Source of the DNA: Candidatus Doudnabacteria bacterium | Lineage (GTDB): Bacteria; Patescibacteriota; Doudnabacteria; UBA920; 2-01-FULL-46-14 | Assembly (NCBI GenBank): GCA_041497195.1 | Contig: JBGQGB010000005.1 | Location: 9,243-73,242 of the forward strand | Length of the DNA: 64,000 nucleotides | Direction: 5' to 3' | Part shown: piece by piece, positions 12,705 to 51,368 of the stretch | How the letters are laid out: each line of letters begins with the position of its first letter | How positions within the stretch are numbered: the first letter of the stretch is position 1 | Program-made: the position numbers and the translations under genes | Notes under the pieces: model-generated | Told to the model about the DNA's origin: nothing | The model's database searches: none | The model's input: only the letters and a program-made list of their open reading frames with translations

Positions 12705-14168
<1,464 letters not shown>

Positions 14169-14587: not shown

Positions 14588-14617
14588 ATTATAGCCCTCG
14601 TTGACCCGTCTTGTCAA
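14588..14617 (-). promoter_or_regulatory. candidate rRNA promoter TTGACA-18-TATAAT about 420 nt upstream of the 16S 5' end
   Basis: Consensus hexamers on the minus strand just downstream of the clpP terminator. Confidence 0.35.
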
Positions 14618-14657
14618 ATCAAAAGCCCTCTCAGAGTGAAAGGGCCTAGTCTCGCCT

Positions 14658-23015: not shown

Positions 23016-23864
23016 CTACCTTTCTCGCCTAGCAAGCAGCTTGATTGCAGCCAAGTTGTGCGGGAAGTTAATTTCAGGGGTGAACGATAAGATGTTCAAT
23101 CTCAAAAGGTTGCCATCGACTGAAACCCCCTCTTCAACAACGTAAGTACTATCCGTTCTGCCACACGTCAAGCTGTCTATTTCTTGGCTACAGGCCTTTA
23201 CGGCAGAATTGGCCAGGACATCCGAGACAACGCTAGGCTTCACCGAAGTTTCACAACGAAGATGGAGGTTACCATGATAAACATAATTGTCATGGGGTAT
23301 GCCTCGCATATAGACCACATCTACCCTAGCAGGAATTCCGGTCAAGGCACTTATTTCTTCCCCGGATTCGTATCCCATGTCAAGCATCCGATCTTTATTG
23401 TTTACCTTGGCGTGAAAGGTATAGATTGATTGAATGTCCAAAGCGCCCTGCAGCGCAACTACCACGTTCAAGGTCGCAAGCGCAGAACACCTGGCAATCT
23501 TTACATAACAGGAAGAAATCCCGGTACTCAAAGGTGCGTAGAAAAGCTCGCACAGTGACGAACTTTCACCATTTTGGAAAATGGCTGGAATTCCGAACTC
23601 TTGGTAAAGCGCCAAGTTAACCGGCCCTTGACCCTTACTGGTGCAATCAACTATGACTTGGGTTTGAGAAAAAATTTCATGAGGCACCATTTGCCAAGTG
23701 CTGTAAGCCGATAGGTGAAGTCTTCTGATCTCTTCTCGTTTTCGCCCATCCCATTCAATTACATACATAATTTTGACCCAGTCACTTTGTCTGGTAAGTA
23801 ACCATGTTACAAATTGAGAGCCAAATTCCCCATAACCAACTATAGCAATCCTGATCTGGTTCAT
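23016..23864 (-). CDS. archaeal-type (class II) glyceraldehyde-3-phosphate dehydrogenase-like NAD(P)-dependent oxidoreductase
   Basis: N-terminal IAIVGYGEFG Rossmann motif; DCTSKGQG...ALYQEFGIPAIFQNGE and a conserved Cys in IARCSALATLN; similarity to archaeal Gap recalled from memory, not searched. Confidence 0.45.
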   Translation of the reverse strand: MNQIRIAIVGYGEFGSQFVTWLLTRQSDWVKIMYVIEWDGRKREEIRRLHLSAYSTWQMVPHEIFSQTQVIVDCTSKGQGPVNLALYQEFGIPAIFQNGESSSLCELFYAPLSTGISSCYVKIARCSALATLNVVVALQGALDIQSIYTFHAKVNNKDRMLDMGYESGEEISALTGIPARVDVVYMRGIPHDNYVYHGNLHLRCETSVKPSVVSDVLANSAVKACSQEIDSLTCGRTDSTYVVEEGVSVDGNLLRLNILSFTPEINFPHNLAAIKLLARRER

Positions 23865-25401: not shown

Positions 25402-26018
25402 GGCTCGTTGTAATTGGAGCGGGCTTTCCAGACGGCAAATCTTTGCGAAATATATTGGCCGAACCAAAATTTATAAACCAAAAAGGAGGCTAAAAGAAAA
25501 AACAAAACCAGGCCGGTGCGCGACAAAAACTTGCTGATGTCAGTGGCGTAGCGGCCGAAATAATATCCCAAAATCGCCAAACTTCCGGTCCAGATGATTC
25601 CTCCGGGTATGGTATATTTCAAAACCTTCGGGTAGTTGATCCGCGTCACGCCAGCCAGAACAAACGTACTTTGTGCCAAACCAGTCAAAACCTTGGCGCT
25701 GAAAAAGATTTTGCCCGGATGCTGTTCGAATCTGTCTTTCAGTTTTTGCAATGATTGGTTGCCCTGGTCAATTTGAGAAATTTTAAGCTTTTTTAAAACC
25801 TTTGGACCACCGTGATATCCCGACCAATAATAAATTGTGTCGGAAATCAAATCAGAAATCACCCCCAAAACGATGACTGCCAAAAGATTGAAAAAACCCA
25901 AAGAGCAAAGAAACCCCATCACTATTGTAATGATCGGTCCCTCCAGAATCATGATCGGGACCGCGACGAAATACCCGTATCGGATGAGAAATAGCAAAAT
26001 CGCGGGAAGGGCATTCAT
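25398..26018 (-). CDS. DedA/SNARE-associated (VTT domain) membrane protein
   Basis: VTT-domain pattern, ATGA overlaps on both sides. Confidence 0.7.
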   Translation of the reverse strand: MNALPAILLFLIRYGYFVAVPIMILEGPIITIVMGFLCSLGFFNLLAVIVLGVISDLISDTIYYWSGYHGGPKVLKKLKISQIDQGNQSLQKLKDRFEQHPGKIFFSAKVLTGLAQSTFVLAGVTRINYPKVLKYTIPGGIIWTGSLAILGYYFGRYATDISKFLSRTGLVLFFLLASFLVYKFWFGQYISQRFAVWKARSNYNEP

Positions 26019-26725
26019 AAAAGATCAGGTCGTTTTTTTTTCGTCGATTTAAGGCTTTCAGCTTGGCGCCACGCCTCGATTTTTTGGTGATTGCCGGAGA
26101 GCAAAACCGCGGGAACATTTCGCAACTTGCCTTTAATTTTTATGCTTTCCGGACGGGTATAGTGTGAATATTCCAAAAAACTCATCCGCTGTTTTGCGAC
26201 TATTCCTTTGGTCTTATTAAAAGATTCGTCTGTCAGTGAGGACTGCTTGCCAATCGCCCCGGGCAACAATCTGGTAATTGCTTCCATCAAAACCATGGCT
26301 GGTACTTCGCCGCCAAACAAAACGTAATCGCCGATGGAAATTTCCTCATCCGCAACGTATTGTATCACCCGTTCGTCAATGCCTTCATACCGGCCGCAAA
26401 TCATGACAATTTGCGGATATTTTGCCAGTCTGCGCGCAGTGCCTTGATTGAAGGTTTTTCCTTTGGCGGAAAAAGCGATGACGTGAGTTTGCTTGGTTTT
26501 TTTCAAATCTTGCACTGCTTTTTGAATTGGTTCCACCAGCATCACCATCCCCGCCCCACCGCCATAAGGCCTGTCATCGACACTCTGGTGCGCATCTGTC
26601 GTCCAATCGCGGAGGTTGTGGGTATTGATGGAGATAATTTTTTTCTTCTGTGACCGCGCAATCAGGGCTTCGTTTTTGAAGCTTGTAAAAATATCGGGAA
26701 AGATTGTGAGAATATCAAAACGCAT
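26015..26725 (-). CDS. trmD: tRNA (guanine37-N1)-methyltransferase TrmD
   Basis: MRFDILTIFPD N-terminus and SPOUT-knot motifs. Confidence 0.9.
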   Translation of the reverse strand: MRFDILTIFPDIFTSFKNEALIARSQKKKIISINTHNLRDWTTDAHQSVDDRPYGGGAGMVMLVEPIQKAVQDLKKTKQTHVIAFSAKGKTFNQGTARRLAKYPQIVMICGRYEGIDERVIQYVADEEISIGDYVLFGGEVPAMVLMEAITRLLPGAIGKQSSLTDESFNKTKGIVAKQRMSFLEYSHYTRPESIKIKGKLRNVPAVLLSGNHQKIEAWRQAESLKSTKKKRPDLL

Positions 26726-31578: not shown

Positions 31579-32550
31579 TTAACCTACTGGCTCGGCGGCC
31601 AAAACCTTTTCTTCCTCATTCAATTTGCCGGTTTTGACCATATGCATCACCGCCAAAACCCAAGCGATATTTTGAAAAACCGCAAAAGCAGCGCCGAGCA
31701 GAACAGTATAGGCAACGCTCAACGCGGCCGCTACAATCAAAAGCGCATAAACCCCGGCCACAAAACCCAATTTTATCAACAAAATCGCCAGTATGAAAAT
31801 GGGGATGCTGAGAAGAATTATACTAAAAACTAGAAGAAAGATGAACAATATGCTCAAACCCGCCAGAAAAGCCGCCAAAAGGACGCTTTCTTTGAGTTTT
31901 TGCCAAATCAAATTGAAAGCGTGCTGGATGGCGTCGCCGATGCGGGCGTGATACAAAACGATAAATATTGGCCCATAGATATGAATAAAACTAAAAATCA
32001 AAATGGCCGGCAAAAAAATGACCGCGCCGATAATGGTCAGAATCAGGGCCTTGCCCACGGCCCCAGCCGCGAACATGTAGATAATTGGCACTCCGAAAAT
32101 TGAGAGCAATAGAAAAAAAATAAGGGTGGTAAAAACTTGGAGTCCAATAATCTGCCAGGCATATTTCCGTCCTTGCCGGAAAGCCTGCCGAAACCCCACT
32201 GGTTCGGTAGTGATTTTTCCTTCAGCTTCTTCGGACAATTTCGGGATGGCCCAAACCACAGCCCCCCGCGACAATCCGGACAAAAAAATCAGGCCAACCA
32301 GAACGAGGAGAGCCACACCCACTAACAATGAAAAAATCTGGGGGTGCGAGGCAATCCAAGTAGTCCAGGCCTGAAAAAGTAATTTTGGATTTGGTATCGT
32401 TTGGGGTTTGACCGGAATGAGGTAATTGATGCCGCCGAAATTCAAACCCGTGGTGCCGCCAACGAAAAGTCCGAAAACCCACAGCCAACGATTTTTCAAA
32501 GTCAGCTCGTAAGCTTTTTTAACGATATCGAGATAAGGAAAAGGGGGCAT
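31579..32550 (-). CDS. hypothetical polytopic membrane protein (about 8 TM)
   Basis: Hydrophobicity only. Confidence 0.45.
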   Translation of the reverse strand: MPPFPYLDIVKKAYELTLKNRWLWVFGLFVGGTTGLNFGGINYLIPVKPQTIPNPKLLFQAWTTWIASHPQIFSLLVGVALLVLVGLIFLSGLSRGAVVWAIPKLSEEAEGKITTEPVGFRQAFRQGRKYAWQIIGLQVFTTLIFFLLLSIFGVPIIYMFAAGAVGKALILTIIGAVIFLPAILIFSFIHIYGPIFIVLYHARIGDAIQHAFNLIWQKLKESVLLAAFLAGLSILFIFLLVFSIILLSIPIFILAILLIKLGFVAGVYALLIVAAALSVAYTVLLGAAFAVFQNIAWVLAVMHMVKTGKLNEEEKVLAAEPVG

Positions 32551-32556
32551 CGTAAT

Positions 32557-34428
32557 TTAAGCTGCGGCCTTGGCTGGGGTTTTGCTTTGGGCTTTTTTTT
32601 CTGGTGGTAAAATATCAGCGACTATTTGATTAAACTCGGCCTGTTCGATGGTTTCATTTTTAACCAAACGAGCCGCAATCTCATTCAGTTTGGAGCGGTA
32701 TTTTTTGCAAATCTCGAGCGCTGTTTTGTAAGCGGCGCCGAGAAACCTGGAAATTTCTTCATCAATTTTAGTGGCGATTTTTTCCGAATAATTCCGCTGC
32801 TCCCCGATTTCTTTTCCCAAAAACACCAGTTCGTGCCGATCGCCGAAAGTGATCGGCCCTAATTTCTCACTCATGCCGTAGAGCATCACCAGCTTGCGCG
32901 CTAGGTTCGTAGCTGCTTGCAAATCATTAGAAGCACCCGTGGTCAACTGGCCAAAAACTAGCTGTTCGGCCGCATACCCGCCCATGGCCACGGCCAGTTC
33001 GGCGAGAAATTGACTCTTGGTCTGCAAATGCCGGTCTTCGGTGGGCAATTTGAGGGTATAGCCGGCGGCGCGGCCGCGGGAAATCACCGAAACCTTGTGG
33101 ACTGGGTCTGCTTCGGGAAGCGCTGTGGTAACCAAAGCGTGACCTGCCTCGTGATACGCGGCAATTTCTTTTTCGGTTTTCGACAAGATGTGGCTCTTGC
33201 GTTCCGGACCGAGCATAACTTTTTCAATGGCTTCGAAAAACTCCTCCTGGTCAACCTGCTTTTTATTCCGCCGCGCGGCCAAAATCGCTGCTTCATTCAC
33301 CAGGTTCGCCAGATCCGCGCCGGAAAATCCGGGCGTGCGTTCCGCCACGAGCCGCAAGTGCACACTCCGGCCTAAGGGCTTGTTGCGGGCGTGGACTTCC
33401 AAAATCGCTTCGCGATCCTTGATGTCTGGCTGGTCGATGACCACTTGCCGGTCAAACCGGCCGGGTCGCAGCAAGGCCGGATCCAAAACATCTGGCCGGT
33501 TGGTGGCGGCGATGACGATAACGCTCGTATCAGTGTCAAATCCGTCCATTTCCACCAGGATTTGGTTGAGGGTTTGTTCCCGCTCGTCGTGAGAGCCGCC
33601 CAAACCAGCCCCCCGCTGTCGCCCGACTGCGTCAATCTCATCGATAAAAACGATGCAAGGAGAGTTCTTTTTGGCCCGCCGAAACAAATCCCGAGTCCGC
33701 GAGGCGCCGACGCCGACAAACATTTCCACAAATTCCGAACCGGACATGTGAAAAAACGGAACATTGGCTTCCCCAGCCACGGCTCGGGCCAGTAGAGTTT
33801 TGCCGGTACCGGGCGGACCCAAAAGCAAAACCCCTTTGGGAATCCGCGCGCCAATGTTCAAAAACTTCTGCGGATAGCGCAAAAACTCGATAATTTCCCG
33901 CAGTTCCTCTTTGGCTTCCTGCACCCCGGCGACGTCATTGAACGTGACCTTTTGCCGCGGCGTGTTGGTATCAGACAAGCGCGCCTGGGACTGCCCGAAA
34001 GACATGGCTCGGTTGTTTGCGCCGGCGACTTGGCGCATCAAAAAATAAATAAATCCGGCTATGAGTAGGAAAGGAATCAGAAACGGGAGAATCGTGGACA
34101 CAAAAATGGTAGCACCGGAGGGGCCTTTGATTTCAATATTCAAATTGCGCACGGCGGCCGCGGGCACGCCGAGATTGGTCAAACTCTGGGAAAAAGACGA
34201 CTCTGGTTCTTTGGTGGCTTCTTCCTGGGTTCCGTCTTTAAGAATAACGGTAAGTTTATTGTCTGTAATCTGGATTTTGTCGACTTGGCCAGCGGTGACC
34301 TGTTCGGCGACCTTGCTCAAAGGAACTTGGGCGGCAGTGGTGTTGCTGCCCAGGGTCAAACTAAAAATTCCCGCAATGATGAGAAAAATAACCGAAGCTA
34401 CTACTAAATTTTTGACGAATTTTTTCAT
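32557..34428 (-). CDS. ftsH: ATP-dependent zinc metalloprotease FtsH
   Basis: AAA Walker [17 protein letters not shown] zinc motif. Confidence 0.9.
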
Positions 34429-34437
34429 AATATAGAA

Positions 34438-34466
34438 ATTATATCCTCAAAAACGTTCGCTCGCAA
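34438..34466 (-). promoter_or_regulatory. sigma70 promoter TTGCGA-17-TATAAT, 9 nt upstream of the ftsH ATG (leaderless)
   Basis: Read on the minus strand. Confidence 0.45.
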
Positions 34467-34581: not shown

Positions 34582-34668
34582 TGGTGCCCCCGGCAGGACT
34601 TGCACCCGCACGACCTTTCGGTCACAAGGTCCTAAACCTTGTGTGTCTGCTAATTCCACCACGGGGGC
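34582..34668 (-). tRNA. tRNA-Leu (anticodon TAG) with long variable arm; T-loop reads TGCAAGT (G at position 55)
   Basis: Hand fold: acceptor GCCCCCG/CGGGGGC, anticodon stem CAAGG/CCTTG with loop TTTAGGA, variable arm GACCGAAAGGTC, CCA end. Confidence 0.7.
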
Positions 34669-34781
34669 GCTTCAGCCCTCGAATTATACCGAAAAACTTC
34701 AGGATTGACAAGGCATTGAAAATCTGGTATTGTTTCCACTCAACCAAAAGGGGGAAAAAATTCTACTAAGGAGCGAAGAAT

Positions 34782-35189
34782 ATGAGAGAACGCCTTGCAA
34801 GATTTTGGCTATCGCTGCGCAAGTGGCTCAGTGAAAGGGGAAAAACCAACCAATCAGGCTGGTACAGAAAATTCGTAATGATGTTCGTGGCCACTACCAG
34901 AAGCCAACTCCAAAGCATGTTCGACTTTGTCGGCGACATTCTCTACTGGGTGCCAGTCGCAGTAGCTGCGGTTTTGGCGGCAATCTCAGTAGTGTTTGCC
35001 ATATTGCAGAAGGAGTTCCCGATTACCGCTTACATTTGGCCAACAGCTTTAGTTCTCGCTTTTTCACTCCTCTTCTGCCGACTTGTGCTACTTAGACGAT
35101 CAGGACTGGCTGTTCTCTTCTGGGGAACAATCAATCCGCTCACAATCATCTGGGTCGCTGGCTGGGCAGTCTGGATCTCGCGCTCTTAG
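34782..35189 (+). CDS. hypothetical 3-TM membrane protein, first gene of the tRNA-Leu-adjacent plus-strand island
   Basis: AAGGAG RBS; followed by an intrinsic terminator. Confidence 0.45.
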   Translation: MRERLARFWLSLRKWLSERGKTNQSGWYRKFVMMFVATTRSQLQSMFDFVGDILYWVPVAVAAVLAAISVVFAILQKEFPITAYIWPTALVLAFSLLFCRLVLLRRSGLAVLFWGTINPLTIIWVAGWAVWISRS

Positions 35190-35209
35190 CGTTTGAACTA
35201 AAACAACCC

Positions 35210-35246
35210 AAAAGGGGGGCTTTCGAGCTCTCCTTTTGTTTTTGTC
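35210..35246 (+). terminator. intrinsic terminator (G-rich/CU-rich stem plus TTTTGTTTTT)
   Basis: Seen in sequence. Confidence 0.45.
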
Positions 35247-35252
35247 TAATTA

Positions 35253-35281
35253 TTGACAAAATGCCCAAAATTTGCTATTAT
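35253..35281 (+). promoter_or_regulatory. consensus sigma70 promoter TTGACA-17-TATTAT followed by a roughly 220-nt 5' UTR ahead of the cold-shock-domain gene
   Basis: Seen in sequence. Confidence 0.55.
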
Positions 35282-35499
35282 GCACTGTCAAAAAACAATT
35301 AAATCAAATGGATTTTTAAGCCTAGGGAACAGGTCTCAAAGGCGAAGAATTTTGCTACTTGTTCTTTGGGCTTACGGTTCGATCCCGTAACTCAAGATCT
35401 TTACCATCCAAGGATTTCAATTTCGCTTCGCTCGTTTTGCGTTTCTTCCGATTTCAGCAAAATCGGTGGCGCCGCTTGCGTGTGGAGCAGGAGGAAAAT

Positions 35500-36099
35500 A
35501 TGAAGGGAAAGATAACAAAATTCCTGACTAACAAAGGCTTCGGTTTTATCGAGCCAGAGGACGGTCAGGGAGATGTTTTCATGCCGCCGAGGTCTTGGGT
35601 CGCGGGATACAACCCGAAGCCTAACGACGAGGTGGAATACGAGCTGGACACTGCGCGGAAGGGTAAATCCCGTGCCGCGAAGAATGTCCGACTCGCAAGC
35701 TCATCAGCCACTTCCTATTCTCCCGCGCCTTCAGAAGCAAAGGGGGGAAAGGAAGAACTCAAAAAAGCCACTCCCACTTCCACGCAAGCTCCAGTCCGAC
35801 AGATTGCGGCTGACCCAGATCTCGACCCGGACAGCAAGGGACGATTCAGGGTCAGTATTTGCACCAGGGATAAGGCAGGCAAACCACATGAGATGAACTT
35901 TCGCGCCATCGTTCTTCAAGGAGAAAAAGTAAAATTCTTCAAGAAGAACGGGGCAGGGTTCACCGAAGTGGGCAACCTCGATTTGCGTACTGGGTCATCT
36001 GGCCGCCTCGAGCTATATCTAAAGTTCGCAGGCGAACAGGCCACAGTCAAGTTTGAGCTCGACAACGCACAATGCATTGTATCCGATTTTACGAAATAG
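35500..36099 (+). CDS. cold-shock domain (CspA-like) protein fused to a roughly 130-aa C-terminal domain of unknown function
   Basis: N-terminus MKGKITKFLTNKGFGFIEPEDGQGDVFMP has the RNP1-like KGFGFI motif; GGAGG RBS; start trimmed from 35359. Confidence 0.7.
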   Translation: MKGKITKFLTNKGFGFIEPEDGQGDVFMPPRSWVAGYNPKPNDEVEYELDTARKGKSRAAKNVRLASSSATSYSPAPSEAKGGKEELKKATPTSTQAPVRQIAADPDLDPDSKGRFRVSICTRDKAGKPHEMNFRAIVLQGEKVKFFKKNGAGFTEVGNLDLRTGSSGRLELYLKFAGEQATVKFELDNAQCIVSDFTK

Positions 36100-36108
36100 G
36101 AGGAAACT

Positions 36109-36699
36109 ATGTCAGACAAGAGCTTGGCAGAAGCATTACTGGGAGACGTCGCCACCGCGGCACTGCTCTCCTTTTTTCTCTCTCTGCGCGAGGGCAAGAT
36201 GCGGATAGACCCGGAAAAACTTCGGAAAGAAGCGCCTCACGCAGTCAAGACAGCCGAACATGAGGCAACCTACGCGGGGGTCATCGCAGAGCTACCTGAC
36301 GCCCTCAAGAAAAGGCTCCTGGAAAGATGGATGCCAAGTCTGGGGCGCAACCAACACGCAGACCTTGTTCTGTCAGTCAAAGACATGGCTGGCAAGGACG
36401 AGCGGAAAAAGGCAATAGAGCTACTCACCTACATCGCTCACCGTCCGACCAACAAGGACAAAACCAAGGCCGCGGTTCATATCAAGTTCATGAAGCTCCA
36501 CGAGAAAGACTACAAAATAGTACAGCTTCTAAACGCGGCACAAAAACTCCGTGATGAAGGTGAGAAGGTCTACGATTGGCTGAAAGAAAAACTCACGGAA
36601 CTGGACAAGTGGCTAAAGATTTTACCAACAGGAACAACCATTCGCACGAACGCTCAAGGATTTCGAGCGCGCGCGGCTGCAGCACGGGCACGCCTCTAA
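36109..36699 (+). CDS. hypothetical soluble protein (196 aa), Lys/Glu-rich helical
   Basis: GGAGG RBS, operonic spacing. Confidence 0.45.
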   Translation: MSDKSLAEALLGDVATAALLSFFLSLREGKMRIDPEKLRKEAPHAVKTAEHEATYAGVIAELPDALKKRLLERWMPSLGRNQHADLVLSVKDMAGKDERKKAIELLTYIAHRPTNKDKTKAAVHIKFMKLHEKDYKIVQLLNAAQKLRDEGEKVYDWLKEKLTELDKWLKILPTGTTIRTNAQGFRARAAAARARL

Positions 36700-36720
36700 G
36701 GCTGCGAAAGGAGAATAAAA

Positions 36721-38781
36721 ATGGAGTTCATTTCTGCAGTGATTTACGCAGCCCTGATCGGACTGGGCCTGCGGCGGTTCGTATGGTTTCGTCAAAGCGT
36801 TGGTGATTATGTCGTTGGCGCGAGGGATTACGGCATAGTCGGCGCAACCCTGACATGGCGCTGGACCAGGCAGTTTCTCATCTGCCTAGTTGTAGTCGCC
36901 ATGTTTTTCCTCGGCCTCCTGACAATGGCAATTCTCTCTGGCAACGAACTCTTTTTGCTGGGAGTCCTGCTTCTGGAGGCGATCCCAGTGTTTTTTGCAG
37001 CCCTTACTCTCCACATCTTGCGGCGACCGCTTGCCGAGTCAGGGAAGTTGCTTCGCGAGAACGGAAACTGGCTGCGTAAAAGCATGGGCAACGGCATCAA
37101 GTTGTTCAAGCTGGAGAGTGCCAAGGTTGGCGAGATGAAAGTGCTGGACGCAATCGAGTATCTTGCCAAGTTTGGCCTAAACCTCGGCATAAGCGTGCTA
37201 AACGGTTTTTATCTTCTGCTTGCTCTTCCGGTCAAGCTGACGGGTGGTGCAATCGAGGTCATCGGTCGGCTCGTTGAGTCAGCCGAAAAACCCGCGCGCT
37301 GGTTTGCAAGACTCCTCGCAGGTCTTTCACTCACTCTCCTCTTCCTCACCGCTGTGGCTATCTGGGATTTGCAGTATGACCTGGGCATACTCAAAGATCC
37401 TCTGGTCATCGGTCTCGTAAGCCTCATCGCCATGGTGTCGATCACCCTCGGAATCTTCGCGGGGGATGCCTTCAGCGGTGGAGCACGCAAATCCCGGAGT
37501 CCTGCTTTTTACGGAGGATTTGCAATCCTGCTTCTGGGTACTGTTCTCGCTAGTCGAATCTTCCCCAAAATTTCCAATGGGGTCGTATATATAATTGAGA
37601 ACGGACACACGGCGGCAGTACGTACCATCAGGGCTCTGGGTCTTCGTAGTGATGCGACGGACGATATTTTTGTCCGCGCGAGGTTCGCCACGAAGATTCA
37701 ATATCAAGCAAAATCTGACGTACTATCCGGCAAGGTCCAATGGGAAAAGATCGAAACCCCAGAGATTCCGATAAACGCATGCGGGGTAGTCGTCCGACCA
37801 AAGGATCGCGCCGAAAAAACAGGTACTCGCCGAGCCATGGTTGAGGTCTACTGGGCAACCCCGGAGGATCCCGACCTGGTCTTGGTGGATACCAAAATCC
37901 AGTCAGGCCGAGCCGAAACCAGATGGGTACCTGACGACTGGGTTGAGAAGATCGACGGGAGATGCAGTTACTCCCAGCCGCTACCTCCTCAGCCAGTTGC
38001 TAGTCTCAAACCTATCTGGTTGACACCGCAAATACCTGTCTCGCCACCAGGCGCAGCAGTACTGCCAGCAGACGTGGCCGGGATGGTTCAAGCGGCAGCT
38101 GCGAAAAACGGCGCGCCACTGGACCTCATGACCGCGATCTGCGTCCACGAGTCGGGATGCAATCTCAACGCTCCCGACGGCCGCAATGGCGAGATCTGCG
38201 CTATGCAGGTCAAGCCAGACACGGCGAGGCAATTCGGGACAGAGCCACAATCGCTTCGCAATCCAGAAGTTTGCTTTGATACTGCAGCCAGAATCTTGGC
38301 CAAGTATCAGGCAGACTACGGGATGAAGCGAACCGATCTCGTGGCCCTCGCATACAATGCCGGCGCTGGCACTGCGGACAAGTATCTCAATGTCCCGTGG
38401 GGCCAAGTTCCGGCAGAAGCACTACGTGGAGTGAATGCGCAAGGCGTGCCTTACGATGCCTACGCATATACAAACGCTGTGTTGGGGATTCTGAGCCGGG
38501 GGGGCGGACAAGTATTTACTGCCCGAACCAACCACTCAACAGCAAGCATAGTCACCGTGGCCTGGGTGATTAATAACAGGCCCCAGCCGATTCTGGTCTG
38601 CCATTCGAGGGACCAGGAAGGTGACTGCAGTACTATACCGCCTGGCAAAGGGTGGTATGGCAGTGTCGGCGCCGAGCTCCGGGAAGGAGAACGGCTCACA
38701 GTCAAAGACACAGGGGGAAATATTCTCCGTGTCGTCACGCTGTCTGACGAGCTCTCGTCAGGCGGCAAAGTCTATATCTAA
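36721..38781 (+). CDS. polytopic membrane protein with C-terminal lytic transglycosylase (SLT) domain and a terminal beta-rich domain
   Basis: About 8 N-terminal TM helices; SLT catalytic region LMTAICVHESGCNLNA ... AMQVKP ... LVALAYNAGAGT. Confidence 0.7.
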   Translation: MEFISAVIYAALIGLGLRRFVWFRQSVGDYVVGARDYGIVGATLTWRWTRQFLICLVVVAMFFLGLLTMAILSGNELFLLGVLLLEAIPVFFAALTLHILRRPLAESGKLLRENGNWLRKSMGNGIKLFKLESAKVGEMKVLDAIEYLAKFGLNLGISVLNGFYLLLALPVKLTGGAIEVIGRLVESAEKPARWFARLLAGLSLTLLFLTAVAIWDLQYDLGILKDPLVIGLVSLIAMVSITLGIFAGDAFSGGARKSRSPAFYGGFAILLLGTVLASRIFPKISNGVVYIIENGHTAAVRTIRALGLRSDATDDIFVRARFATKIQYQAKSDVLSGKVQWEKIETPEIPINACGVVVRPKDRAEKTGTRRAMVEVYWATPEDPDLVLVDTKIQSGRAETRWVPDDWVEKIDGRCSYSQPLPPQPVASLKPIWLTPQIPVSPPGAAVLPADVAGMVQAAAAKNGAPLDLMTAICVHESGCNLNAPDGRNGEICAMQVKPDTARQFGTEPQSLRNPEVCFDTAARILAKYQADYGMKRTDLVALAYNAGAGTADKYLNVPWGQVPAEALRGVNAQGVPYDAYAYTNAVLGILSRGGGQVFTARTNHSTASIVTVAWVINNRPQPILVCHSRDQEGDCSTIPPGKGWYGSVGAELREGERLTVKDTGGNILRVVTLSDELSSGGKVYI

Positions 38782-38815
38782 GGAGGACTACCGCGCCCAG
38801 CAAGGGCGCAATCAC

Positions 38816-38869
38816 AAAACCCGGGAAGAAAGTCGCAAATGCGACAATCTTCCCGGGTAATTTTTTTTG
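38816..38869. terminator. bidirectional intrinsic terminator between the convergent SLT gene and the pilin array
   Basis: cccgggaag...cttcccggg 9-bp stem with an inner gtcgc/gcgac stem, A-run upstream and T-run downstream. Confidence 0.6.
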
Positions 38870-38885
38870 CCAAAAAAATCCTGCC

Positions 38886-39251
38886 CTAAACCACACCCAA
38901 GGTCAAAGCATTGGCAATCACGCGGACAATCACGAAAGACAAGATCACGATGACAATACCGATGATGGCATGGGTAATGGTCAGTTTGGCTGCCTCAGCT
39001 TGTTCCTCATTGCCGTGCGCAGTCACATACCGAAACCCGCCGATAATCACGTACAAGACTGCCACCAGTCCGACTACAGCCAGGAGAATATTAATGATAT
39101 AGATGATCAGCATCGTGGCAGTCAAAGAGCCGGCTGGCCCGAAGAAACCGATGACCCAGGGGACCGGGACCGGGCCAGTTCCCGGGGTGACCACGCCTAC
39201 CAGCACAGAGGCTGGAACCGATTTTTTGATTTTTTGGAAAAGTTTTGCCAT
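38886..39251 (-). CDS. VirB2/TrbC-topology pilin-like small membrane protein, paralog 1
   Basis: Shares the C-terminal module IIGGFRYVTAHGNEEQAEAAK-TITHAIIGIVIVILSFVIV with six neighbours. Confidence 0.6.
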   Translation of the reverse strand: MAKLFQKIKKSVPASVLVGVVTPGTGPVPVPWVIGFFGPAGSLTATMLIIYIINILLAVVGLVAVLYVIIGGFRYVTAHGNEEQAEAAKLTITHAIIGIVIVILSFVIVRVIANALTLGVV

Positions 39252-39254
39252 GGT

Positions 39255-39665
39255 TTAGGGGACTCCAGTTACCAAAACGTTTGTGACGATTGTGATGACC
39301 GCAAAAGACAGAATCACAATAACCAATCCGACCACGGCCTGCACCATCATTTTCTTGGCTGCTTCCGTGGCTTCCTCGTTGCCTGCCGCAGTCAGATAGC
39401 GAAACGCCCCGATAATCAAAAAGAGCACTGCCAAGGTCCCGACAATCAGGAGGGCGATGTCCAAAATCAAAGTCGTGATATTACCAAAAGTCGTGCTGCC
39501 GGCCGGACCAGAGGCGCCGTTTAAAGGACAGGGTACTCGGACGAAAGTGCTGCCGCCAACATTACAAAAACCTGCCGCTGCCTGAACCTGCGGTACCATC
39601 ATCAGGAACAAAAAAACCGCAGACAAGATTAGAAAACTGATTCCCCCGAAATAGCCTCTGCTCAT
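39255..39665 (-). CDS. pilin-like paralog 2 (signal peptide plus IIGAFRYLTAAGNEEATEAAKK module)
   Basis: Signal peptide MSRGYFGGISFLILSAVFLFLMMVPQVQAAAG; conserved module. Confidence 0.6.
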   Translation of the reverse strand: MSRGYFGGISFLILSAVFLFLMMVPQVQAAAGFCNVGGSTFVRVPCPLNGASGPAGSTTFGNITTLILDIALLIVGTLAVLFLIIGAFRYLTAAGNEEATEAAKKMMVQAVVGLVIVILSFAVITIVTNVLVTGVP

Positions 39666-40060
39666 AGTCCGAGCCCTCCCGTGCCTTGCAGTAACACTGA
39701 AGAAATAATCTGCACGATGGCAAAGGACAAAAGCACCACCACCAGACCAATGATTGCACCAGTGATGGTTTTCTTGGCTGCCTCAGTTTGCTCTTCATTG
39801 CCATGGGCGATGACGTAGCGATAGCCGCCAATGATCAACCACACTGTGGCCACAGTCCCCACCACAATCAGTAAAATTTGTACGACAAGTAACGCCAAGC
39901 TCCCCAAGGTATTAGCTCCGGCCGGGGAACCAGACCCGGCGCCAAAGGCTGGCCCGAGATTCTGGAAAGTGGGGGAATTGATCCCTGACTGGGCCAGATA
40001 AATAGCTGAGAAATAGCTGCCGATTTTCGCGACTGAATTGGCAATTTTATTTTTGTGCAT
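39662..40060 (-). CDS. pilin-like paralog 3 (IIGGYRYVIAHGNEEQTEAAKKTIT)
   Basis: Conserved module; ATGA overlap with paralog 2. Confidence 0.6.
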   Translation of the reverse strand: MHKNKIANSVAKIGSYFSAIYLAQSGINSPTFQNLGPAFGAGSGSPAGANTLGSLALLVVQILLIVVGTVATVWLIIGGYRYVIAHGNEEQTEAAKKTITGAIIGLVVVLLSFAIVQIISSVLLQGTGGLGL

Positions 40061-40203
40061 ACATCAGGTGAGCGAGCTCACCATAAGCCGATTGAGTACG
40101 CCACTTCAAAGTCCAAAAATATGGAACAATTTGGAGGCGTACTCAATCAGAGCCTACATAGGATTGTCTTTTTTTAAAAAAGGATTGCCGCTGACAAATG
40201 AGT

Positions 40204-40578
40204 CTAGACTGTATTGCTGATCAGAGCATTGGCAATCACACGGACGATCACGAAAGACAAGATTATAATCACGATACCGATGATGGCATTGGTGATGGTC
40301 TTTTTCGCTGACTCGGATGATTCTTCATTGCCACCGGCGGTGATGTAGCGGAACCCACCAATGATCAGAAAGACGACAGCGACCAAGCCCGCCACAGCCA
40401 AAAGAATCTGAATGACGGTGAGCAAGATCTGGGAAAAGCTGGCCTGATTCGGCAAGTTCGTGCCAGTCGAATTCGGCACATTAAACTGCGCCCCGGCGGT
40501 AAAGGGCATCAAGGCCAGACTCAACATGGTCACTATGGTCAAAACATTCGCGATTTTAATCAGATTGTAATTTCTCAT
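40204..40578 (-). CDS. pilin-like paralog 4 (IIGGFRYITAGGNEESSESAKKTIT)
   Basis: Signal peptide ending AGAQF; conserved module. Confidence 0.6.
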   Translation of the reverse strand: MRNYNLIKIANVLTIVTMLSLALMPFTAGAQFNVPNSTGTNLPNQASFSQILLTVIQILLAVAGLVAVVFLIIGGFRYITAGGNEESSESAKKTITNAIIGIVIIILSFVIVRVIANALISNTV

Positions 40579-40688
40579 TTTATTTCAAGTATCCCTAAAT
40601 TAATGGCTAAATAACCTCGACCTGGTTACGTGTAAATGTAAGGTTTAACTAGCTGAACCAATTATCAACAACTGAACCAATTATAGTA

Positions 40689-41081
40689 TTACGAGGGCTG
40701 TGTCGTCAAAAGCGTATTCACAATCGACACAATCGCGTAGGCCATCACGATAATCACGATGCCGATTATGGCGCTAGTGACAGTCTTTTTGGCTTTCTCC
40801 ATAGCCTCTTCATTGCCGCGGGAGGAGACATACTGAAAGCCTCCAATCATCAGAAATACTACCGCGATTGCTCCGGCAAAAGTCAGAAGTGTCAGCACAG
40901 CCTTAGCCAATAAATCACCAAAATTATCAATATGAACCAGGTAGTCTGGAGCCGGGTTTTGGATTGCCCCGGGCGTTCCGACATTGCCAGTGCCAGCGGC
41001 GGCTGGCAGAGCTGCAAACAAACTCACTAACAAAACCAGGACAGAGGAAATGAGAGCAAAAAATTTTATTTTTTGTTTCAT
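40689..41081 (-). CDS. pilin-like paralog 5 (MIGGFQYVSSRGNEEAMEKAKKTVT)
   Basis: Signal peptide; conserved module. Confidence 0.6.
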   Translation of the reverse strand: MKQKIKFFALISSVLVLLVSLFAALPAAAGTGNVGTPGAIQNPAPDYLVHIDNFGDLLAKAVLTLLTFAGAIAVVFLMIGGFQYVSSRGNEEAMEKAKKTVTSAIIGIVIIVMAYAIVSIVNTLLTTQPS

Positions 41082-41087
41082 GCGATT

Positions 41088-41735
41088 TTACGAAATTAAA
41101 AACTTTTGCACTGAACCGATGATGGTATAAGCTAGGATGCTGGCGGCAAAGCCAATGACTGACCAGCGCAAGCCGCTTTTCGCTTTCTCCACTGCTTCTT
41201 CATTGCCGGCGGATGTGACATACCTGTACCCATAATAAACAATCATCAAAATCGTGGCAAATCCGAGGATGCCCAAAAAACTAGTCATCACGAAAACCAA
41301 TACGTCAATAAAACTGGCCGAGTTGCCTGCGCCCCCGATATTGACCGGATTTTGCAAAGTATTGGTGGGAGCCGTGCTGGGCTGCTGAAAACCCAAAAAT
41401 TTGGCCACCCCGGAAACAATGGTATAAGTCAGGAGTGCGACCACGAATCCCCCCACCGACCAGGTCAAGCTCCTTTTCGCGGTTTCCAGCCCTTCCTCAC
41501 TCGTGGCAATCACAATCTTGAATCCGCTGAACACGCTAAAAGCGATCGCAATGGTACCGATGAGCAGGGCAAACCCGGCAATGACTTTGGTGATGAGCCC
41601 TGCTGGATCATTAACACTGATAAAATTGAGGGGATTGTCCAGGTTGGTGGCAGCCTGAGCCATCTGATCGCCGAATAAAAAAACCAGGACTAAAAAAGCT
41701 TCGAGAGTGAGAAATAAAAGTATCAACCTTTTCAT
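41088..41735 (-). CDS. pilin-like paralog 6, internally duplicated (two tandem copies of the TM-GNEE-TM module in one 215-aa protein)
   Basis: Motifs ATSEEGLETAKRSLT and SAGNEEAVEKAKSGL each flanked by hydrophobic helices. Confidence 0.6.
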   Translation of the reverse strand: MKRLILLFLTLEAFLVLVFLFGDQMAQAATNLDNPLNFISVNDPAGLITKVIAGFALLIGTIAIAFSVFSGFKIVIATSEEGLETAKRSLTWSVGGFVVALLTYTIVSGVAKFLGFQQPSTAPTNTLQNPVNIGGAGNSASFIDVLVFVMTSFLGILGFATILMIVYYGYRYVTSAGNEEAVEKAKSGLRWSVIGFAASILAYTIIGSVQKFLIS

Positions 41736-41759
41736 AGTTTGTCTTTGCCGATTACCCTC

Positions 41760-42203
41760 TCAGGACCAACAGCTAGAATTTGGTAGATAAATGCATTGTG
41801 GATCCCACCACGGCCGCGTTGCTCCGGCTTTGCCAAACAGCCCGTTGACTAGCAAGTTCACAAACACAAAGGCCAAAACAATTATGGCAAACCCCACGAC
41901 TGCGTTGGACAGGCCGGTTTTGGCTTTTTGAATTTTTTCCGCATTACCGAGGGCGATAATGAGATTGAATCCGCTGGTCAAAATATAGTACATGGCCACC
42001 AAAGCGGCCACGGAAATGAGATAATTAATCACGATAATTATCATGGAAATCAGGTCCGGAAAGGTACATTGAGTGACTGTCGCAACGTGCGTAACTGGAT
42101 CAACCACCTCCTGCCCGCAAGGCACGAGCGCCGCATGGCTCAGGGCCGGAACCATCAATAAACCTAGTCCAATCACAACTAGACTAACCAAAAAATATTT
42201 CAT
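41760..42203 (-). CDS. pilin-like paralog 7, divergent, with four Cys (LGNAEKIQKAKTGLS module)
   Basis: Signal peptide; divergent module; Cys pairs near the N- and C-termini. Confidence 0.5.
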   Translation of the reverse strand: MKYFLVSLVVIGLGLLMVPALSHAALVPCGQEVVDPVTHVATVTQCTFPDLISMIIIVINYLISVAALVAMYYILTSGFNLIIALGNAEKIQKAKTGLSNAVVGFAIIVLAFVFVNLLVNGLFGKAGATRPWWDPQCIYLPNSSCWS

Positions 42204-43528: not shown

Positions 43529-44386
43529 TTAGGAAACAAAAATATCTTTGATTTTGTCGCGATAATCCGCGCGGTTCATTGCAAACGCCCGAATCGCTTG
43601 CAGATAAGAAATCGGATCGCCGGTCGTATACCACTGCCCGTCAACGACATCACTATAATAAGCCTTGGTGCCTTTCTTTAGTAAATACTCAATACCGTCA
43701 GCAATCCACCTCTCACCGCCCTTTCCCGGGGGGATGCTCAATAACGCCTCGAAAATCTCCGGGGTTAGAATATACCGCCCGAAAATTGCCAACCGCGAAA
43801 CAGTGGACCCGGCCGCTGGTTTTTCAATAATTGATTGAATTTGATTTTGCTCTCCTCTCTTTTTAGGTTCGACAATCCCATATTTTTTTACTTCCTCTGC
43901 TTTGACCTCCTGCACTCCGATATAAATTCCTGGGTTTTTCTCATAAGCTTGGAGCATGCTTCTGGTAAAGGGCTCTTTGGAAAGAACCAAATCATCGCTA
44001 AACGCGTAGACAAACGGCTCGTTACCGAGCAAGTGCTGGGCATTCAAAACAGGCGTGCCGTTTCCATAAGTACCTTTTTGTCGGATATAACTAAAATTGG
44101 CAAGCTCTGCGATATTCCGAATCTGGAGCATCTCCTCGGTTTTTTTGTTTCGTTCTAGCCATGTCTCCAACTCCGGGTGATAATCAAAGTGATCTTCAAT
44201 GGCTCGCTTGTTTTGGCCAGTTACAAAAATTATGTCGGTTATGCCGGAAGCGACCAATTCCTCCACCACGTATTGCACAACCGGTTTATCCACCACTGGC
44301 AACATTTCTTTCGGCATGGCTTTGGTCACTGGCAAAAATCTGGTGCCAAATCCAGCGACCGGGATTACTGCTTTGGTGATTGCCAT
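43529..44386 (-). CDS. galU: UTP--glucose-1-phosphate uridylyltransferase
   Basis: AVIPVAGFGTRFLPVTKAMPKEMLPVVDKP N-terminal signature. Confidence 0.85.
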   Translation of the reverse strand: MAITKAVIPVAGFGTRFLPVTKAMPKEMLPVVDKPVVQYVVEELVASGITDIIFVTGQNKRAIEDHFDYHPELETWLERNKKTEEMLQIRNIAELANFSYIRQKGTYGNGTPVLNAQHLLGNEPFVYAFSDDLVLSKEPFTRSMLQAYEKNPGIYIGVQEVKAEEVKKYGIVEPKKRGEQNQIQSIIEKPAAGSTVSRLAIFGRYILTPEIFEALLSIPPGKGGERWIADGIEYLLKKGTKAYYSDVVDGQWYTTGDPISYLQAIRAFAMNRADYRDKIKDIFVS

Positions 44387-51327: not shown

Positions 51328-51336
51328 AGTAGTTGA

Positions 51337-51345
51337 TTATATCAA
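51337..51345 (-). promoter_or_regulatory. extended -10 element TGaTATAAT, 8 nt upstream of the recA ATG (leaderless)
   Basis: Read on the minus strand: tttTGATATAATcaactactATG. Confidence 0.45.
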
Positions 51346-51368
51346 AATTTAAGCTCTTTGAAAAAGTC

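Follow-up and report, generated by a model that had tools for sequence, protein, structure and literature searches.

The plus-strand block beside a tRNA-Leu gene is read here, with a probability of about 0.5, as a conserved accessory module of the envelope in a Patescibacteria (CPR) lineage that is related to Candidatus Doudnabacteria, encoding a VirB1-like wall-cutting or host-interaction protein tied to a pilin locus. The reading builds on observed gene structure, domains, motifs, family rarity and synteny, and on the distinct SD sites and codon usage of the block. The module would consist of a 3-TM gene, lineage-specific and flanked by a promoter and terminator of its own, followed by a three-gene operon with a long leader, encoding a cold-shock-domain (CSD) protein, a protein of about 200 residues and a membrane protein.

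Architecture of the block

The window, the whole 64-kb stretch of DNA analysed, holds this tRNA-Leu-flanked block inside a Patescibacteria (CPR) genome. As the first-pass annotation described, four plus-strand ORFs after tRNA-Leu break a long minus-strand run, and the block converges on a pilin array, made up of seven PF18895 T4SS_pilin genes. The features are as follows.

32557-34428: ftsH, left landmark together with tRNA-Leu(tag)
34582..34668, minus: tRNA-Leu (anticodon TAG); ARAGORN, Rfam tRNA 47.8 bits
34705..34733, plus: promoter-like site 5' of gene 1, TTGACA-17-TATTGT with TG extension; consensus scan
34782..35189, plus: gene 1, 135 aa, 3 hydrophobic helices, SD AAGGAG; ORF list, hydropathy
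35209..35238, plus: intrinsic-terminator-like hairpin, 13 pairs, then T run; terminator scan
35253..35281, plus: promoter-like site for the three-gene operon, TTGACA-17-TATTAT with TG extension; consensus scan, 11/12 matches
35289..35499, plus: predicted 5' leader of the CSD gene, ~210 nt; extent taken from the promoter position
35500..36099, plus: gene 2, 199 aa, CSD protein, SD AGGAGG; Pfam CSD 3.4e-9
36109..36699, plus: gene 3, 196 aa, SD AGGAGG; ORF list, no library match
36721..38781, plus: gene 4, 686-aa polytopic membrane protein, SD AAGGAG; Pfam, hydropathy, family search, alignments
38083..38388, plus: SLT (family-1 lytic transglycosylase) domain of gene 4; Pfam SLT
38819..38858, no strand: 19-nt inverted repeat, 89% complementary, 2-nt loop, between convergent stop codons; repeat search
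38886..42203, minus: seven VirB2-like (PF18895 T4SS_pilin) genes, convergent with gene 4; products of 121, 136, 132, 124, 130, 215 (double) and 147 aa; Pfam

The block faces the 5' end of tRNA-Leu(tag), and the tRNA and ftsH form a conserved left landmark, also found left of the module in lineages L008, L018 and L022. The site at 34705..34733 is the predicted promoter of gene 1 from the consensus scan, and the hairpin at 35209..35238 would close this gene as a separate transcription unit. The operon promoter has an aligned counterpart in L008, TTGACA-N17-CATACT, ~225 nt upstream of the L008 CSD gene. The leader of the CSD gene folds better than its shuffles (-65.8 kcal/mol, z=-3.0) and matches no Rfam family at E<=1, the cspA leader included. 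The inverted repeat, whose shorter core (38832-38845) is also picked up by the terminator scan, is likely a bidirectional terminator, which would part the operon from the pilin array.

Gene 1 matches nothing in Pfam, PHROG or NCBIfam, tblastn finds it in none of the related loci, and it is missing from L008, where the interval between tRNA-Leu and the CSD gene is visible; from these comparisons it appears to be lineage-specific. The product of gene 2, in which the first-pass annotation correctly recognized a CSD, joins an N-terminal CSD with an intact KGFGFI motif to a beta-rich C-terminal domain of ~110 aa, and is predicted to be cytoplasmic. The cold-shock domain is an OB-fold that binds single-strand nucleic acid. 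In L008 (E 4e-22), L012 and L015, homologues of gene 2 stand at the corresponding place of the operon; a CSD is also detected in the L012 and L018 counterparts, and none is detected in those of L009, L017 and L022. Gene 3 encodes a protein that is probably helical for the most part, with a predicted N-terminal helix of weak hydrophobicity and a basic C-terminal tail (RARAAAARARL), and that has no match in Pfam, NCBIfam, PHROG or known defence and signalling families. It has an orthologue in L008 (E 3e-26), and in all other lineages its position is held by a 213-245-aa protein with a similar basic tail, for which no homology to gene 3 is detected. The proposed model does not account for what the CSD protein and gene 3 do, which counts against it.

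Gene 4 joins a membrane domain to an SLT head

Hydropathy places 7-8 TM helices in residues 1-290 of gene 4, followed by a conserved juxtamembrane beta-rich domain (residues ~300-420, TRRAMVEVYW...EDPDLVLVD...WVP), the SLT domain (residues 455-556, Pfam 1.3e-12) and a beta-rich C-terminus (~590-686), in line with the polytopic SLT protein first annotated. The catalytic Glu477-Ser478 pair is intact (codons at 38149-38154), as are AMQ (residues 494-496) and AYNAG (544-548). Gene 4 is thus predicted, from these motifs, to be an active membrane-anchored lytic transglycosylase, and the topology would place its C-terminus outside the cell. Structure models are poor (pLDDT 58 and 37).

By sequence, the SLT domain best matches transglycosylases of phage virions and conjugative plasmids. 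T7 gp16, phiKZ gp144 and phi6 P5 match it best in both sequence and fold, and the catalytic Glu aligns; unlike these phage enzymes, gene 4 lies in a locus that carries no other phage feature. A tblastn search of 50,697 phage records gives no match, and phage and plasmid collections hold no homologue of the membrane domain, only weak SLT-domain matches. The family is rare, with 17 representatives among the 1.84 billion proteins searched. Its members have the 7-8-TM and juxtamembrane domains in common and vary at the C-terminus, where the head is SLT in 4, a PA-IL lectin in 2 and other domains elsewhere. Evolution is fast, with 33-37% identity where FtsH retains 81%.

Gene 4 is unlikely to be an ordinary housekeeping membrane-bound lytic transglycosylase (Mlt-like) acting in growth or division, with its pilin adjacency an accident of conserved gene order. 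Such a role would agree with the equal synteny of the unrelated neighbours SBP, NTP-transferase and ComM, and with four lineages that have no pilin neighbour, but it is opposed by the rarity and fast evolution of the family, by the absence of the SLT head from most members and the PA-IL lectin head of two, and by the phage and conjugative-plasmid enzymes as best SLT matches. A match to a housekeeping Mlt/Slt family, which the first-pass annotation named as evidence against a secretion role, is not found in NCBIfam.

The module in related genomes

Eight other lineages (L008, L009, L012/L013, L014, L015, L017, L018 and L022) share the operon order of CSD-type protein, 213-245-aa protein and membrane protein, and L024 has the last two genes only, downstream of a coupling-protein-like ATPase. 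The locus order in relatives is ftsH, tRNA-Leu(tag), plus-strand module and convergent pilin array, followed by SBP, NTP-transferase and ComM where the contig continues; it is kept in relatives with 81% and 55% FtsH identity, and the right flank in L009, L018 and L022. The similarity order of the membrane protein, L008 > L009 > L018, is that of FtsH and ComM identity. No integrase, transposase or flanking direct (att) repeat is found for the block, which borders the 5' and not the 3' end of the tRNA. Judged from the relatives that carry the module at the same place, the block is not a recently inserted tRNA-targeted island, and the discrete acquisition at a tRNA first suggested is not borne out.

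The content beside the tRNA varies, with gene 1 in the window, nothing in L008 and a kinase set in L018 and L022, and at least four unrelated genomic contexts harbour the module. A Ser/Thr kinase gene stands directly upstream, tightly spaced, in L013, L017, L018 and L022. In L018 and L022 it is the last of Zn-ribbon-PP2C, VWA, Zn-ribbon and kinase genes, and in L017 a double-zinc-ribbon protein, in which no PP2C is detected, precedes the VWA, Zn-ribbon and kinase genes. These sets resemble the TerY-P triad, which reportedly comprises a vWA protein, a PP2C phosphatase and a Ser/Thr kinase, in an account attributed to Anantharaman, Iyer and Aravind from 2012. It is highly improbable that the CSD protein, gene 3 and the membrane protein are the output of such a kinase/PP2C/VWA set, forming an envelope signalling or stress module with the membrane protein as sensor or effector. 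The upstream genes and the long, apparently structured leader of the CSD gene are consistent with this, but the window and L008 lack the triad, only its position connects it with the membrane protein, neither gene 3 nor gene 4 matches a known defence or signalling family, and the enzymatic and lectin heads are left unexplained.

Translation signals and codon usage

Strong SD sites (AAGGAG, AGGAGG, AGGAGG and AAGGAG for genes 1-4) precede 4/4 block genes vs 4/43 other ATG-start genes (Fisher p=3.9e-4). The genes for ftsH, recA, RNaseT-helicase, sufS, ftsK, trmD and NTP-transferase are leaderless, since their -10 box ends 6-9 nt before the ATG, so the reported contrast between SD-led block genes and leaderless core genes holds. 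The reported GC contrast, 55% vs 48%, does not: 55.2% is reached by the 686-aa gene alone (50.2-52.8% in the other three), the block has 52.3% vs 49.4% for the rest, 7% of equal-sized windows are as GC-rich, and ftsH, recA and sufS have 52.6%, 52.1% and 51.1%. Block GC3 (0.56-0.59) equals the window mean of 0.587.

The real compositional signal of the block is synonymous codon choice. By codon-usage deviation (G-test, synonymous codons) the block genes rank 1, 4, 5 and 6 of 48, with shifts relative to the rest in GCA (0.36 vs 0.10), TTG (0.09 vs 0.34) and AAG (0.54 vs 0.29). In codon usage all four deviate in a common direction (mutual r=0.70-0.76), along which recA scores -0.55 and ribosomal protein S16 0.16, and the tetranucleotide deviation is centred on 36-40 kb (z=2.5). 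The block is thus compositionally distinct as first claimed, by codons and tetranucleotides instead of GC. The first-pass annotation held that conserved synteny with uniform composition would speak against acquisition: the position is conserved in relatives, the composition is not uniform.

In the relatives, the gene 4 SD is present in every lineage examined, with flanking genes mostly lacking SD sites. Module GC3 is 0.72-0.89 vs 0.42-0.57 for the flanks in L018 and 0.66-0.80 vs 0.34-0.54 in L022, and is far above the flanks also in L011, L012, L017, L014 and L024. Across lineages the module has SD sites in every one and raised GC3 in most.

A foreign origin of the block, old or recurring, is possible. 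The module (CSD gene, genes 3 and 4, plus the kinase/PP2C/VWA set of some lineages) would then have entered horizontally, by acquisition or repeated replacement, with the stretch from tRNA-Leu to the pilin array as a hot spot and a donor pool that uses SD sites and is richer in GC; this is a tentative reading, at somewhat less than even odds. The common codon direction, the G-test ranks, the SD sites, the raised GC3 in seven relatives, the variable tRNA-side content and the unrelated contexts argue for it. Like tRNA-linked genomic islands, the block adjoins a tRNA, stands out in codon usage and translation signals and differs in its tRNA-side content among relatives; unlike them, it lacks an integrase and att repeats, lies on the 5' side of the tRNA and keeps its site across deep relatives, down to 55% FtsH identity, with a similarity order that tracks housekeeping genes. 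Also against a foreign origin are the lack of phage or plasmid homologues of the membrane domain and the unraised GC3 of the window block, and the shift elsewhere, always GC-richer, could reflect selection or GC-biased gene conversion. This horizontal reading keeps the first-pass idea as a weaker claim, of an older or recurrent event; it bears on origin and is compatible with the wall-cutting function proposed below.

The pilin array and known secretion systems

Among 10 lineages with visible downstream DNA, the convergent pilin array follows the module in 6/10, the window and, with homologous arrays, L008, L009, L011, L018 and L022, which agrees with the convergence noted at first pass; the operon has no neighbouring array in L012, L014, L017 and L024. 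In the Doudnabacteria relative L009, the membrane protein has no SLT and an SLT is fused to a T4SS_pilin protein of the array; it is not a close relative of the gene 4 SLT (BLASTP E=0.33). The shared convergent arrangement and the L009 fusion lend comparative support to a putative functional link between gene 4 and the pilins. The adjacency could also be plain inherited synteny, because SBP, NTP-transferase and ComM are conserved alongside equally well. No virB4, virD4, virB6 or other T4SS ATPase or channel gene lies within the 64-kb window, which counts against the favoured reading.

The seven divergent tandem PF18895 genes on a CPR chromosome resemble the VirB2-like arrays of Patescibacteria described in PMC12102498, and are not near virB4 within the window. 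Such an array is reported there to be essential in Ca. Southlakia epibionticum (Quinonero-Coronel et al. 2025, PMC12102498), and section 13 of that paper makes no mention of a convergent CSD/gene-3/membrane-protein operon. According to PMC12102498, VirB1 homologues are mostly missing from Patescibacteria, with other glycosidases suspected as substitutes.

In monoderms, VirB1 homologues are membrane-anchored with extracellular enzymatic domains (PMC12857230). Like TraG of pIP501, PrgK of pCF10 and Orf14 of Tn916, gene 4 would be an anchored protein with an extracellular wall-cutting domain, as judged from its predicted topology; its SLT is of the kind in TraG, beside T4SS-type pilin genes in a monoderm. 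The anchor differs, with 7-8 TM helices in ~290 aa instead of the short single-TM anchor drawn for monoderm homologues (PMC12857230), as do the absence of a CHAP or LytM partner domain and of a neighbouring virB4, and the non-enzymatic domains that replace SLT in most family members. By hhalign, gene 4 and PrgK show no relation beyond what SLT would give.

The first-pass annotation also proposed a VirB6-like N-terminus. A fusion of a divergent VirB6-type channel subunit with a wall hydrolase, as a true T4SS component, is very unlikely. At least 5 TM helices followed by large hydrophilic C-terminal domains do resemble 'extended VirB6' (PMC12857230), gene 4 adjoins VirB2-like pilins, and in L024 the gene-3-like/gene-4-like pair lies ~250 nt downstream of the coupling-protein-like ATPase (TrwB_AAD_bind 8.9e-11). 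PMC12102498 moreover reports few or no detectable VirB6 homologues for some Patescibacteria classes, suggestive of extreme divergence. Unlike extended VirB6, however, the hydrophilic part of gene 4 is predicted outside and enzymatic. No Pfam TrbL/VirB6 signal appears (4 members at E<=10, all 17 at E<=0.01), hhalign gives a probability of 0.3% against pCF10 PrgH and Tn916 Orf15, single-sequence templates of limited power, and no structural similarity is detectable with a weak gene 4 model that likewise limits power. No virB4 lies within 64 kb, and the L024 pair has its own SD/GC3 signature and looks inserted beside the ATPase.

Proposed function

In the accessory envelope module favoured here, the 7-8-TM protein would display, outside the cell, the juxtamembrane domain and a C-terminal 'head' that can be exchanged. 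The head in the window is a family-1 lytic transglycosylase, predicted to sit on the outside of the cytoplasmic membrane, where it may cut glycan strands locally. Its target could be the cell's own wall, letting a VirB2-like pilus or another surface structure through in the manner of monoderm VirB1, or the wall of an attached host cell; a role of lytic transglycosylases in breaching host envelopes has been proposed (PMC11665869). That lectin or other heads replace the enzyme in other members suggests a general function in surface contact whose specificity can be swapped. In conclusion, gene 4 is a candidate wall-opening enzyme for the pilus system of ultra-small Patescibacteria/CPR.

Organization of the plus-strand block

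The window, part of a Patescibacteria (CPR) metagenome-assembled genome, is dominated by minus-strand housekeeping genes (trmD, SMC, RNase III, ftsH, ComM, lspA, RNaseT-helicase, recA, RodZ and ftsK), among which four plus-strand genes lie between tRNA-Leu(tag) and an array of pilin genes:

34582-34668, minus strand: tRNA-Leu(tag), its 5' end facing the block
34782-35189, plus strand: gene 1, 135 aa, three hydrophobic helices
35500-36099, plus strand: gene 2, 199 aa, cold-shock domain (CSD; Pfam 3.4e-9), C-terminal domain of ~110 aa
36109-36699, plus strand: gene 3, 196 aa, matchless in Pfam, NCBIfam, PHROGs and PADLOC
36721-38781, plus strand: gene 4, 686 aa, SLT domain at residues 455-556 (Pfam 1.3e-12)
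38819-38858, between gene 4 and the pilin array: 19-nt inverted repeat resembling a bidirectional terminator
38886-42203, converging with gene 4: T4SS_pilin array, seven PF18895 genes (Pfam)

The gene content, strand switch, tRNA, Shine-Dalgarno (SD) sites, SLT domain and pilin neighbour claimed in the first-pass annotation are each confirmed. In consensus scans, gene 1 is preceded by a promoter and followed by a terminator, and a second promoter at 35253-35281 lies ahead of the operon formed by genes 2-4, implying for it a leader of ~210 nt. The predicted leader (35289-35499) folds better than its shuffled versions (z=-3.0) and includes, at about 35385-35399, a hairpin like a tRNA T-arm, ACGGTTCGATCCCGT. 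No Rfam family, the cspA leader included, is matched 5' of the CSD gene. In locus L008, one of the related loci from other genomes (L007-L024), a promoter-like site lies ~225 nt 5' of the CSD gene, with slight sequence conservation.

The CSD of gene 2 scores 36.9 bits, with KGFGFI intact and DVFMPP as RNP2, while the score of every NCBIfam Csp equivalog falls far under its cut-off. Members of the CspA family are small stand-alone proteins of ~70 aa, whereas gene 2 encodes 199 aa with an added domain. Between the gene-3 proteins of the window and L008 and the proteins at the gene-3 position elsewhere, hhalign detects no homology (probability 1.5%), so the latter are taken as positional counterparts only. 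A known anti-phage defence system is rejected as an identity for the block, since PADLOC returns generic kinase and CSD matches only.

Elsewhere in the window, a complete 16S rRNA gene occupies 12706-14170; the 64 kb contain no 23S rRNA gene, so the rRNA genes are unlinked. Pfam, PHROGs and NCBIfam contain nothing that matches the 323-aa polytopic membrane protein encoded between tRNA-Val and ftsH (31579-32550).

The block occupies a conserved site in related genomes

The block had been read as horizontally acquired at the tRNA. Comparison of the relatives' loci speaks against a discrete, recent insertion, as the block lies at the same tRNA-Leu site in L008, L018 and L022. In L008 (FtsH 81% identical), ftsH and tRNA-Leu(tag) are followed by the CSD gene, gene 3, an SLT-bearing gene 4 and the convergent pilin array, without gene 1. 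In the Candidatus Doudnabacteria locus L007/L009 (ComM 74%, SBP 56%), the operon adjoins the same flank as in the window and the order is retained: operon, pilin array, SBP, NTP-transferase, ComM and lspA. In L018 (FtsH 55%, ComM 58%) and L022, ftsH and tRNA-Leu(tag) are followed by a longer plus-strand block, comprising in order Zn-ribbon-PP2C, VWA, Zn-ribbon, Ser/Thr kinase, CSD-type protein, gene-3-position protein, gene-4 homologue and one further gene, after which come the pilin array and the window's right flank. The gene-4 E-values (L008 2.7e-69, L009 2.1e-46, L018 8.3e-21) rank the relatives as housekeeping identity does.

The borders likewise lack the marks of such an insertion. No integrase or recombinase is present among the block genes of the window, L008, L018 and L022, and no direct repeats were found flanking the block. 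Islands at tRNA genes adjoin the 3' end of the tRNA and repeat that end as a direct repeat at their other border, whereas this block abuts the 5' end of a minus-strand tRNA. The block is not a recent tRNA-targeted island. An earlier foreign origin of the module, or its recurrent replacement, is compatible with these loci, and the module is found in several unrelated genomic contexts. Phage or plasmid origin is rejected: there is no phage match, and plasmids yield two weak SLT-domain matches only.

Several of the loci carry further genes of their own. A Ser/Thr kinase gene lies directly 5' of the CSD-type gene in L018 (1062-5793), L022 (2730-7609), L017 (1933-7458) and L013 (302-2299). Zn-ribbon-PP2C and VWA genes also occur in L018 and L022, and L018 and L023 have one more Zn-ribbon gene. 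In L017, VWA and Zn-ribbon genes accompany a gene for a double-zinc-ribbon protein in which no PP2C is detected. This kinase set, which we liken to the TerY-P triad, shares the module's raised GC3 and SD sites and is absent from the window. In L022, ftsH (1-2131) contains an intein (Intein_splicing, with a faint LAGLIDADG match), and the pilin array is broken up by GIY-YIG and DUF433 genes.

Translation signals and codon usage set the module apart

Strong SD sites precede all four block genes, as the first-pass annotation had proposed, compared with 4 of the 43 other ATG-start genes (p=3.9e-4). Its leaderless neighbours also hold: at ftsH, recA, the helicase and sufS a -10 box ends 6-9 nt before the ATG, and the same arrangement is seen at ftsK, trmD and the NTP-transferase. 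From this spacing these housekeeping genes appear leaderless. The boxes (TATAAT, TAAAAT or TACAAT) lie 5' of ftsH (34429-34450), recA (51328-51350) and ftsK, and of the genes at 47243-49666, 43529-44386, 26015-26725, 20807-22018 and 8197-8556. Most remaining genes of the window have neither an SD site nor such a box.

The feature described at first pass is real and its description mostly right, except for the GC figures, which were overstated: GC is 52.3% in the block and 49.4% outside it, gene 4 alone attains 55%, and ftsH and recA stand at ~52%. The block's GC3 equals the window mean. Its composition is nonetheless atypical within the window by codon and k-mer analysis, mainly through synonymous codons. 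In the codon G-test the four genes rank 1, 4, 5 and 6 among 48, and they deviate in a common direction (r=0.70-0.76; recA -0.55, S16 0.16); the tetranucleotide deviation reaches z=2.5, centred at 36-40 kb. By composition the block would pass for a genomic island, though the GC difference is small.

This signature extends to the relatives. An SD site precedes gene 4 in every lineage examined, with flanking genes mostly devoid of one, and the GC3 of the module is well over that of its flanks in L018, L022, L011, L012, L017, L014 and L024. Strand bias does not account for the codon shift, which holds in L017, where module and neighbours share a strand; other plus-strand genes of the window are also less deviant. 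High expression is rejected too, as the shift is absent from recA and S16.

Other parts of the window deviate as well. A 282-aa ORF led by AGGAGG (23016-23864; no Pfam match) ranks third of 48 in codon-usage deviation. The most compositionally deviant stretch is 60001-64000 (tetranucleotide z=3.5), in which an alpha/beta-hydrolase gene (60924-61715) has a GC of 0.587 and a codon shift like that of the block (r=0.67), followed at 62-64 kb by a GC of 0.39-0.41.

Gene 4 belongs to a rare family with variable C-terminal domains

An exhaustive HMMER search with residues 1-450 against 1.84 billion representatives yields a family of 17 proteins at E<=1e-3. Word-index protein searches with the full protein, the C-terminal half or the family alignment return the query alone or nothing, and NCBIfam has no match for gene 4. 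A three-sequence search for related loci finds one GTDB genome and, in the metagenome collection, none; the nearest species-representative genome with a gene-4 relative is a Candidatus Doudnabacteria MAG. No published description of the operon or of the gene-4 family was found in the literature.

Common to the family is a membrane domain with 7-8 TM helices; many members also have a juxtamembrane domain, recognisable by the motif TRRAMxEVYW...EDPDLVLVD...WVP. The C-termini vary: four members carry SLT, two a PA-IL lectin, some extra TM blocks and others beta-rich domains of unknown type. In the AlphaFold model of residues 286-686, spanning the juxtamembrane and C-terminal domains, the pLDDT is 37 (8 sequences).

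In the window protein, the SLT profile (PF01464, GH23 fold) matches residues 455-556 at 47.8 bits (gathering cut-off 21.3). The domain also shows the lysozyme-like fold. The motifs H-E477-S478, A494-M-Q496 and A544-Y-N-A-G548 are kept, with Cys-Ala standing for Gly-Leu in the GLMQ-type motif. Among solved structures, the T7 gp16 transglycosylase matches best in sequence, the catalytic Glu of gene 4 aligning with its TES; in PHROGs, lytic tail or internal virion proteins come first. Among plasmids, an MPF_T conjugative one supplies the nearest match (43.7% over 87 aa), a lytic transglycosylase encoded next to a T4CP gene. Gene 4 would present an exchangeable extracellular head, here apparently an active lytic transglycosylase.

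Gene 4 and the VirB2-like pilin array

The convergence of the SLT gene on a VirB2-like pilin array was noted at first pass. Operon and array converge in this way in six of the ten lineages whose downstream DNA is visible (window, L008, L009, L011, L018 and L022); in L012, L014, L017 and L024 no neighbouring array is seen. Because the six share the whole neighbourhood, this adjacency may be plain inheritance. More telling for the pilin link is a fusion in L009. There SLT is missing from gene 4, and the array closes at its far end with a gene for a 386-aa T4SS_pilin+SLT protein (Candidatus Doudnabacteria JAHFJD010000016, 7985-9145; SLT 31.9 bits, pilin 25.9 bits, just below cut-off). Its orthologue in the window (41760-42203, 147 aa, 42% identity) is without SLT. 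Migration of a single SLT domain between gene 4 and the pilin is rejected, as the two domains are not close relatives; a transglycosylase therefore seems to have been recruited to the pilin locus twice.

Comparison with VirB1 and VirB6

Gene 4 had been likened to the membrane-anchored VirB1-type hydrolases of monoderms. The architecture agrees with this: 7-8 TM segments precede the SLT domain, as in VirB1-type hydrolases, where a membrane anchor is joined to an extracellular peptidoglycan-hydrolase domain, the extracellular site being predicted for gene 4. The surroundings do not: such hydrolases sit near virB4 and mating-pair-formation genes, whereas gene 4 adjoins VirB2-like pilins only, no T4SS gene cluster surrounds it, and the large ORFs of the 64-kb window contain no VirB4, VirD4, VirB6 or VirB8 domain. 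Alignment of gene 4 with PrgK by hhalign gives a probability of 0.2%.

The further proposal of a VirB6-like N-terminus is supported by none of the tests, whose power is limited by single-sequence templates and a weak model. VirB6/TrbL is absent at E<=0.01 in Pfam across the 17 family members. At E<=10, no Pfam family of any kind matches the window protein's membrane domain; P0010 and P0016 give chance-level matches only (Ninjurin, DUF4191) and P0002 SLT only, with no TrbL/VirB6 in the four members tested. Family hhalign against the single-sequence templates pCF10 PrgH and Tn916 Orf15 gives 0.3% each, and a PDB sequence-profile search returns nothing relevant. Fold searches with the membrane part recover generic helical proteins only; the model used (pLDDT 58, pTM 0.35) has limited power to reveal a likeness to the solved VirB6 (R388 TrwI). 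VirB6, TrbL and PrgH are polytopic with 5 or more TM segments, and the 7-8 hydrophobic segments of gene 4 are an unspecific likeness. The N-terminus is not demonstrably VirB6.

A single finding speaks instead for a T4SS channel. In L024, the most distant member, the gene-3-like/gene-4-like pair lies 3' of a coupling-protein-like ATPase (TrwB_AAD_bind 8.9e-11). The pair is marked by an SD and GC3 signature of its own and has the look of an insertion beside the ATPase. The ATPase preceding it has 853 aa (2421-4982), and 5.5 kb 3' of the pair a 683-aa protein (12703-14754) has a weak SLT match (E 6e-4).

Discussion

The best-supported reading of genes 2-4 is a conserved, fast-evolving envelope operon. 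That its enzyme is a VirB1-like wall-cutter or a host-contact protein tied to the VirB2-like pilin locus has roughly even odds (about 0.5). Monoderm VirB1 homologues are membrane-anchored with extracellular enzymatic domains, and 'extended VirB6' proteins exist (PMC12857230). A survey of Patescibacteria lists 441 VirB2-like arrays in 383 assemblies and describes VirB1 homologues as rare, with other glycosidases suspected as substitutes (PMC12102498); most pilin-array genomes have no recognisable VirB1 wall hydrolase (PMC12102498, PMC11665869). The T4SS and VirB2-like pilin array are reported as essential, with unknown function, in the sole genetically tested species (PMC12102498). A cultivated member is reported to take up host RNA by an unknown route (2026 preprint, 10.64898/2026.06.21.733656).

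A much bolder and improbable reading would unite the operon and pilin array in an apparatus, specific to Patescibacteria, that serves host contact and uptake. The exchangeable head (transglycosylase, lectin or others), placed at the base of a VirB2-like pilus, would bind or open the host's wall or the cell's own, and the cytoplasmic CSD protein would take single-stranded nucleic acid (host RNA or DNA) crossing the membrane domain. In L024 the slot 5' of the gene pair is taken by the T4SS coupling-protein-like ATPase. On this reading, the lasting SD sites and the shifted GC3 of the module would be the trace of a host-specificity locus whose alleles are often exchanged. The finding itself is not proof of a new kind of system.

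The distinct SD sites, codon usage and GC3 of the module in leaderless or SD-poor genomes pose a small puzzle, of gene flow or of translation control. Patescibacteria rely on host cells. In conclusion, a rare, fast-evolving membrane protein with a transglycosylase or lectin head, retained beside the pilin array in several lineages, offers these organisms' biology a testable candidate for wall opening, be it of their own wall or of the host's.
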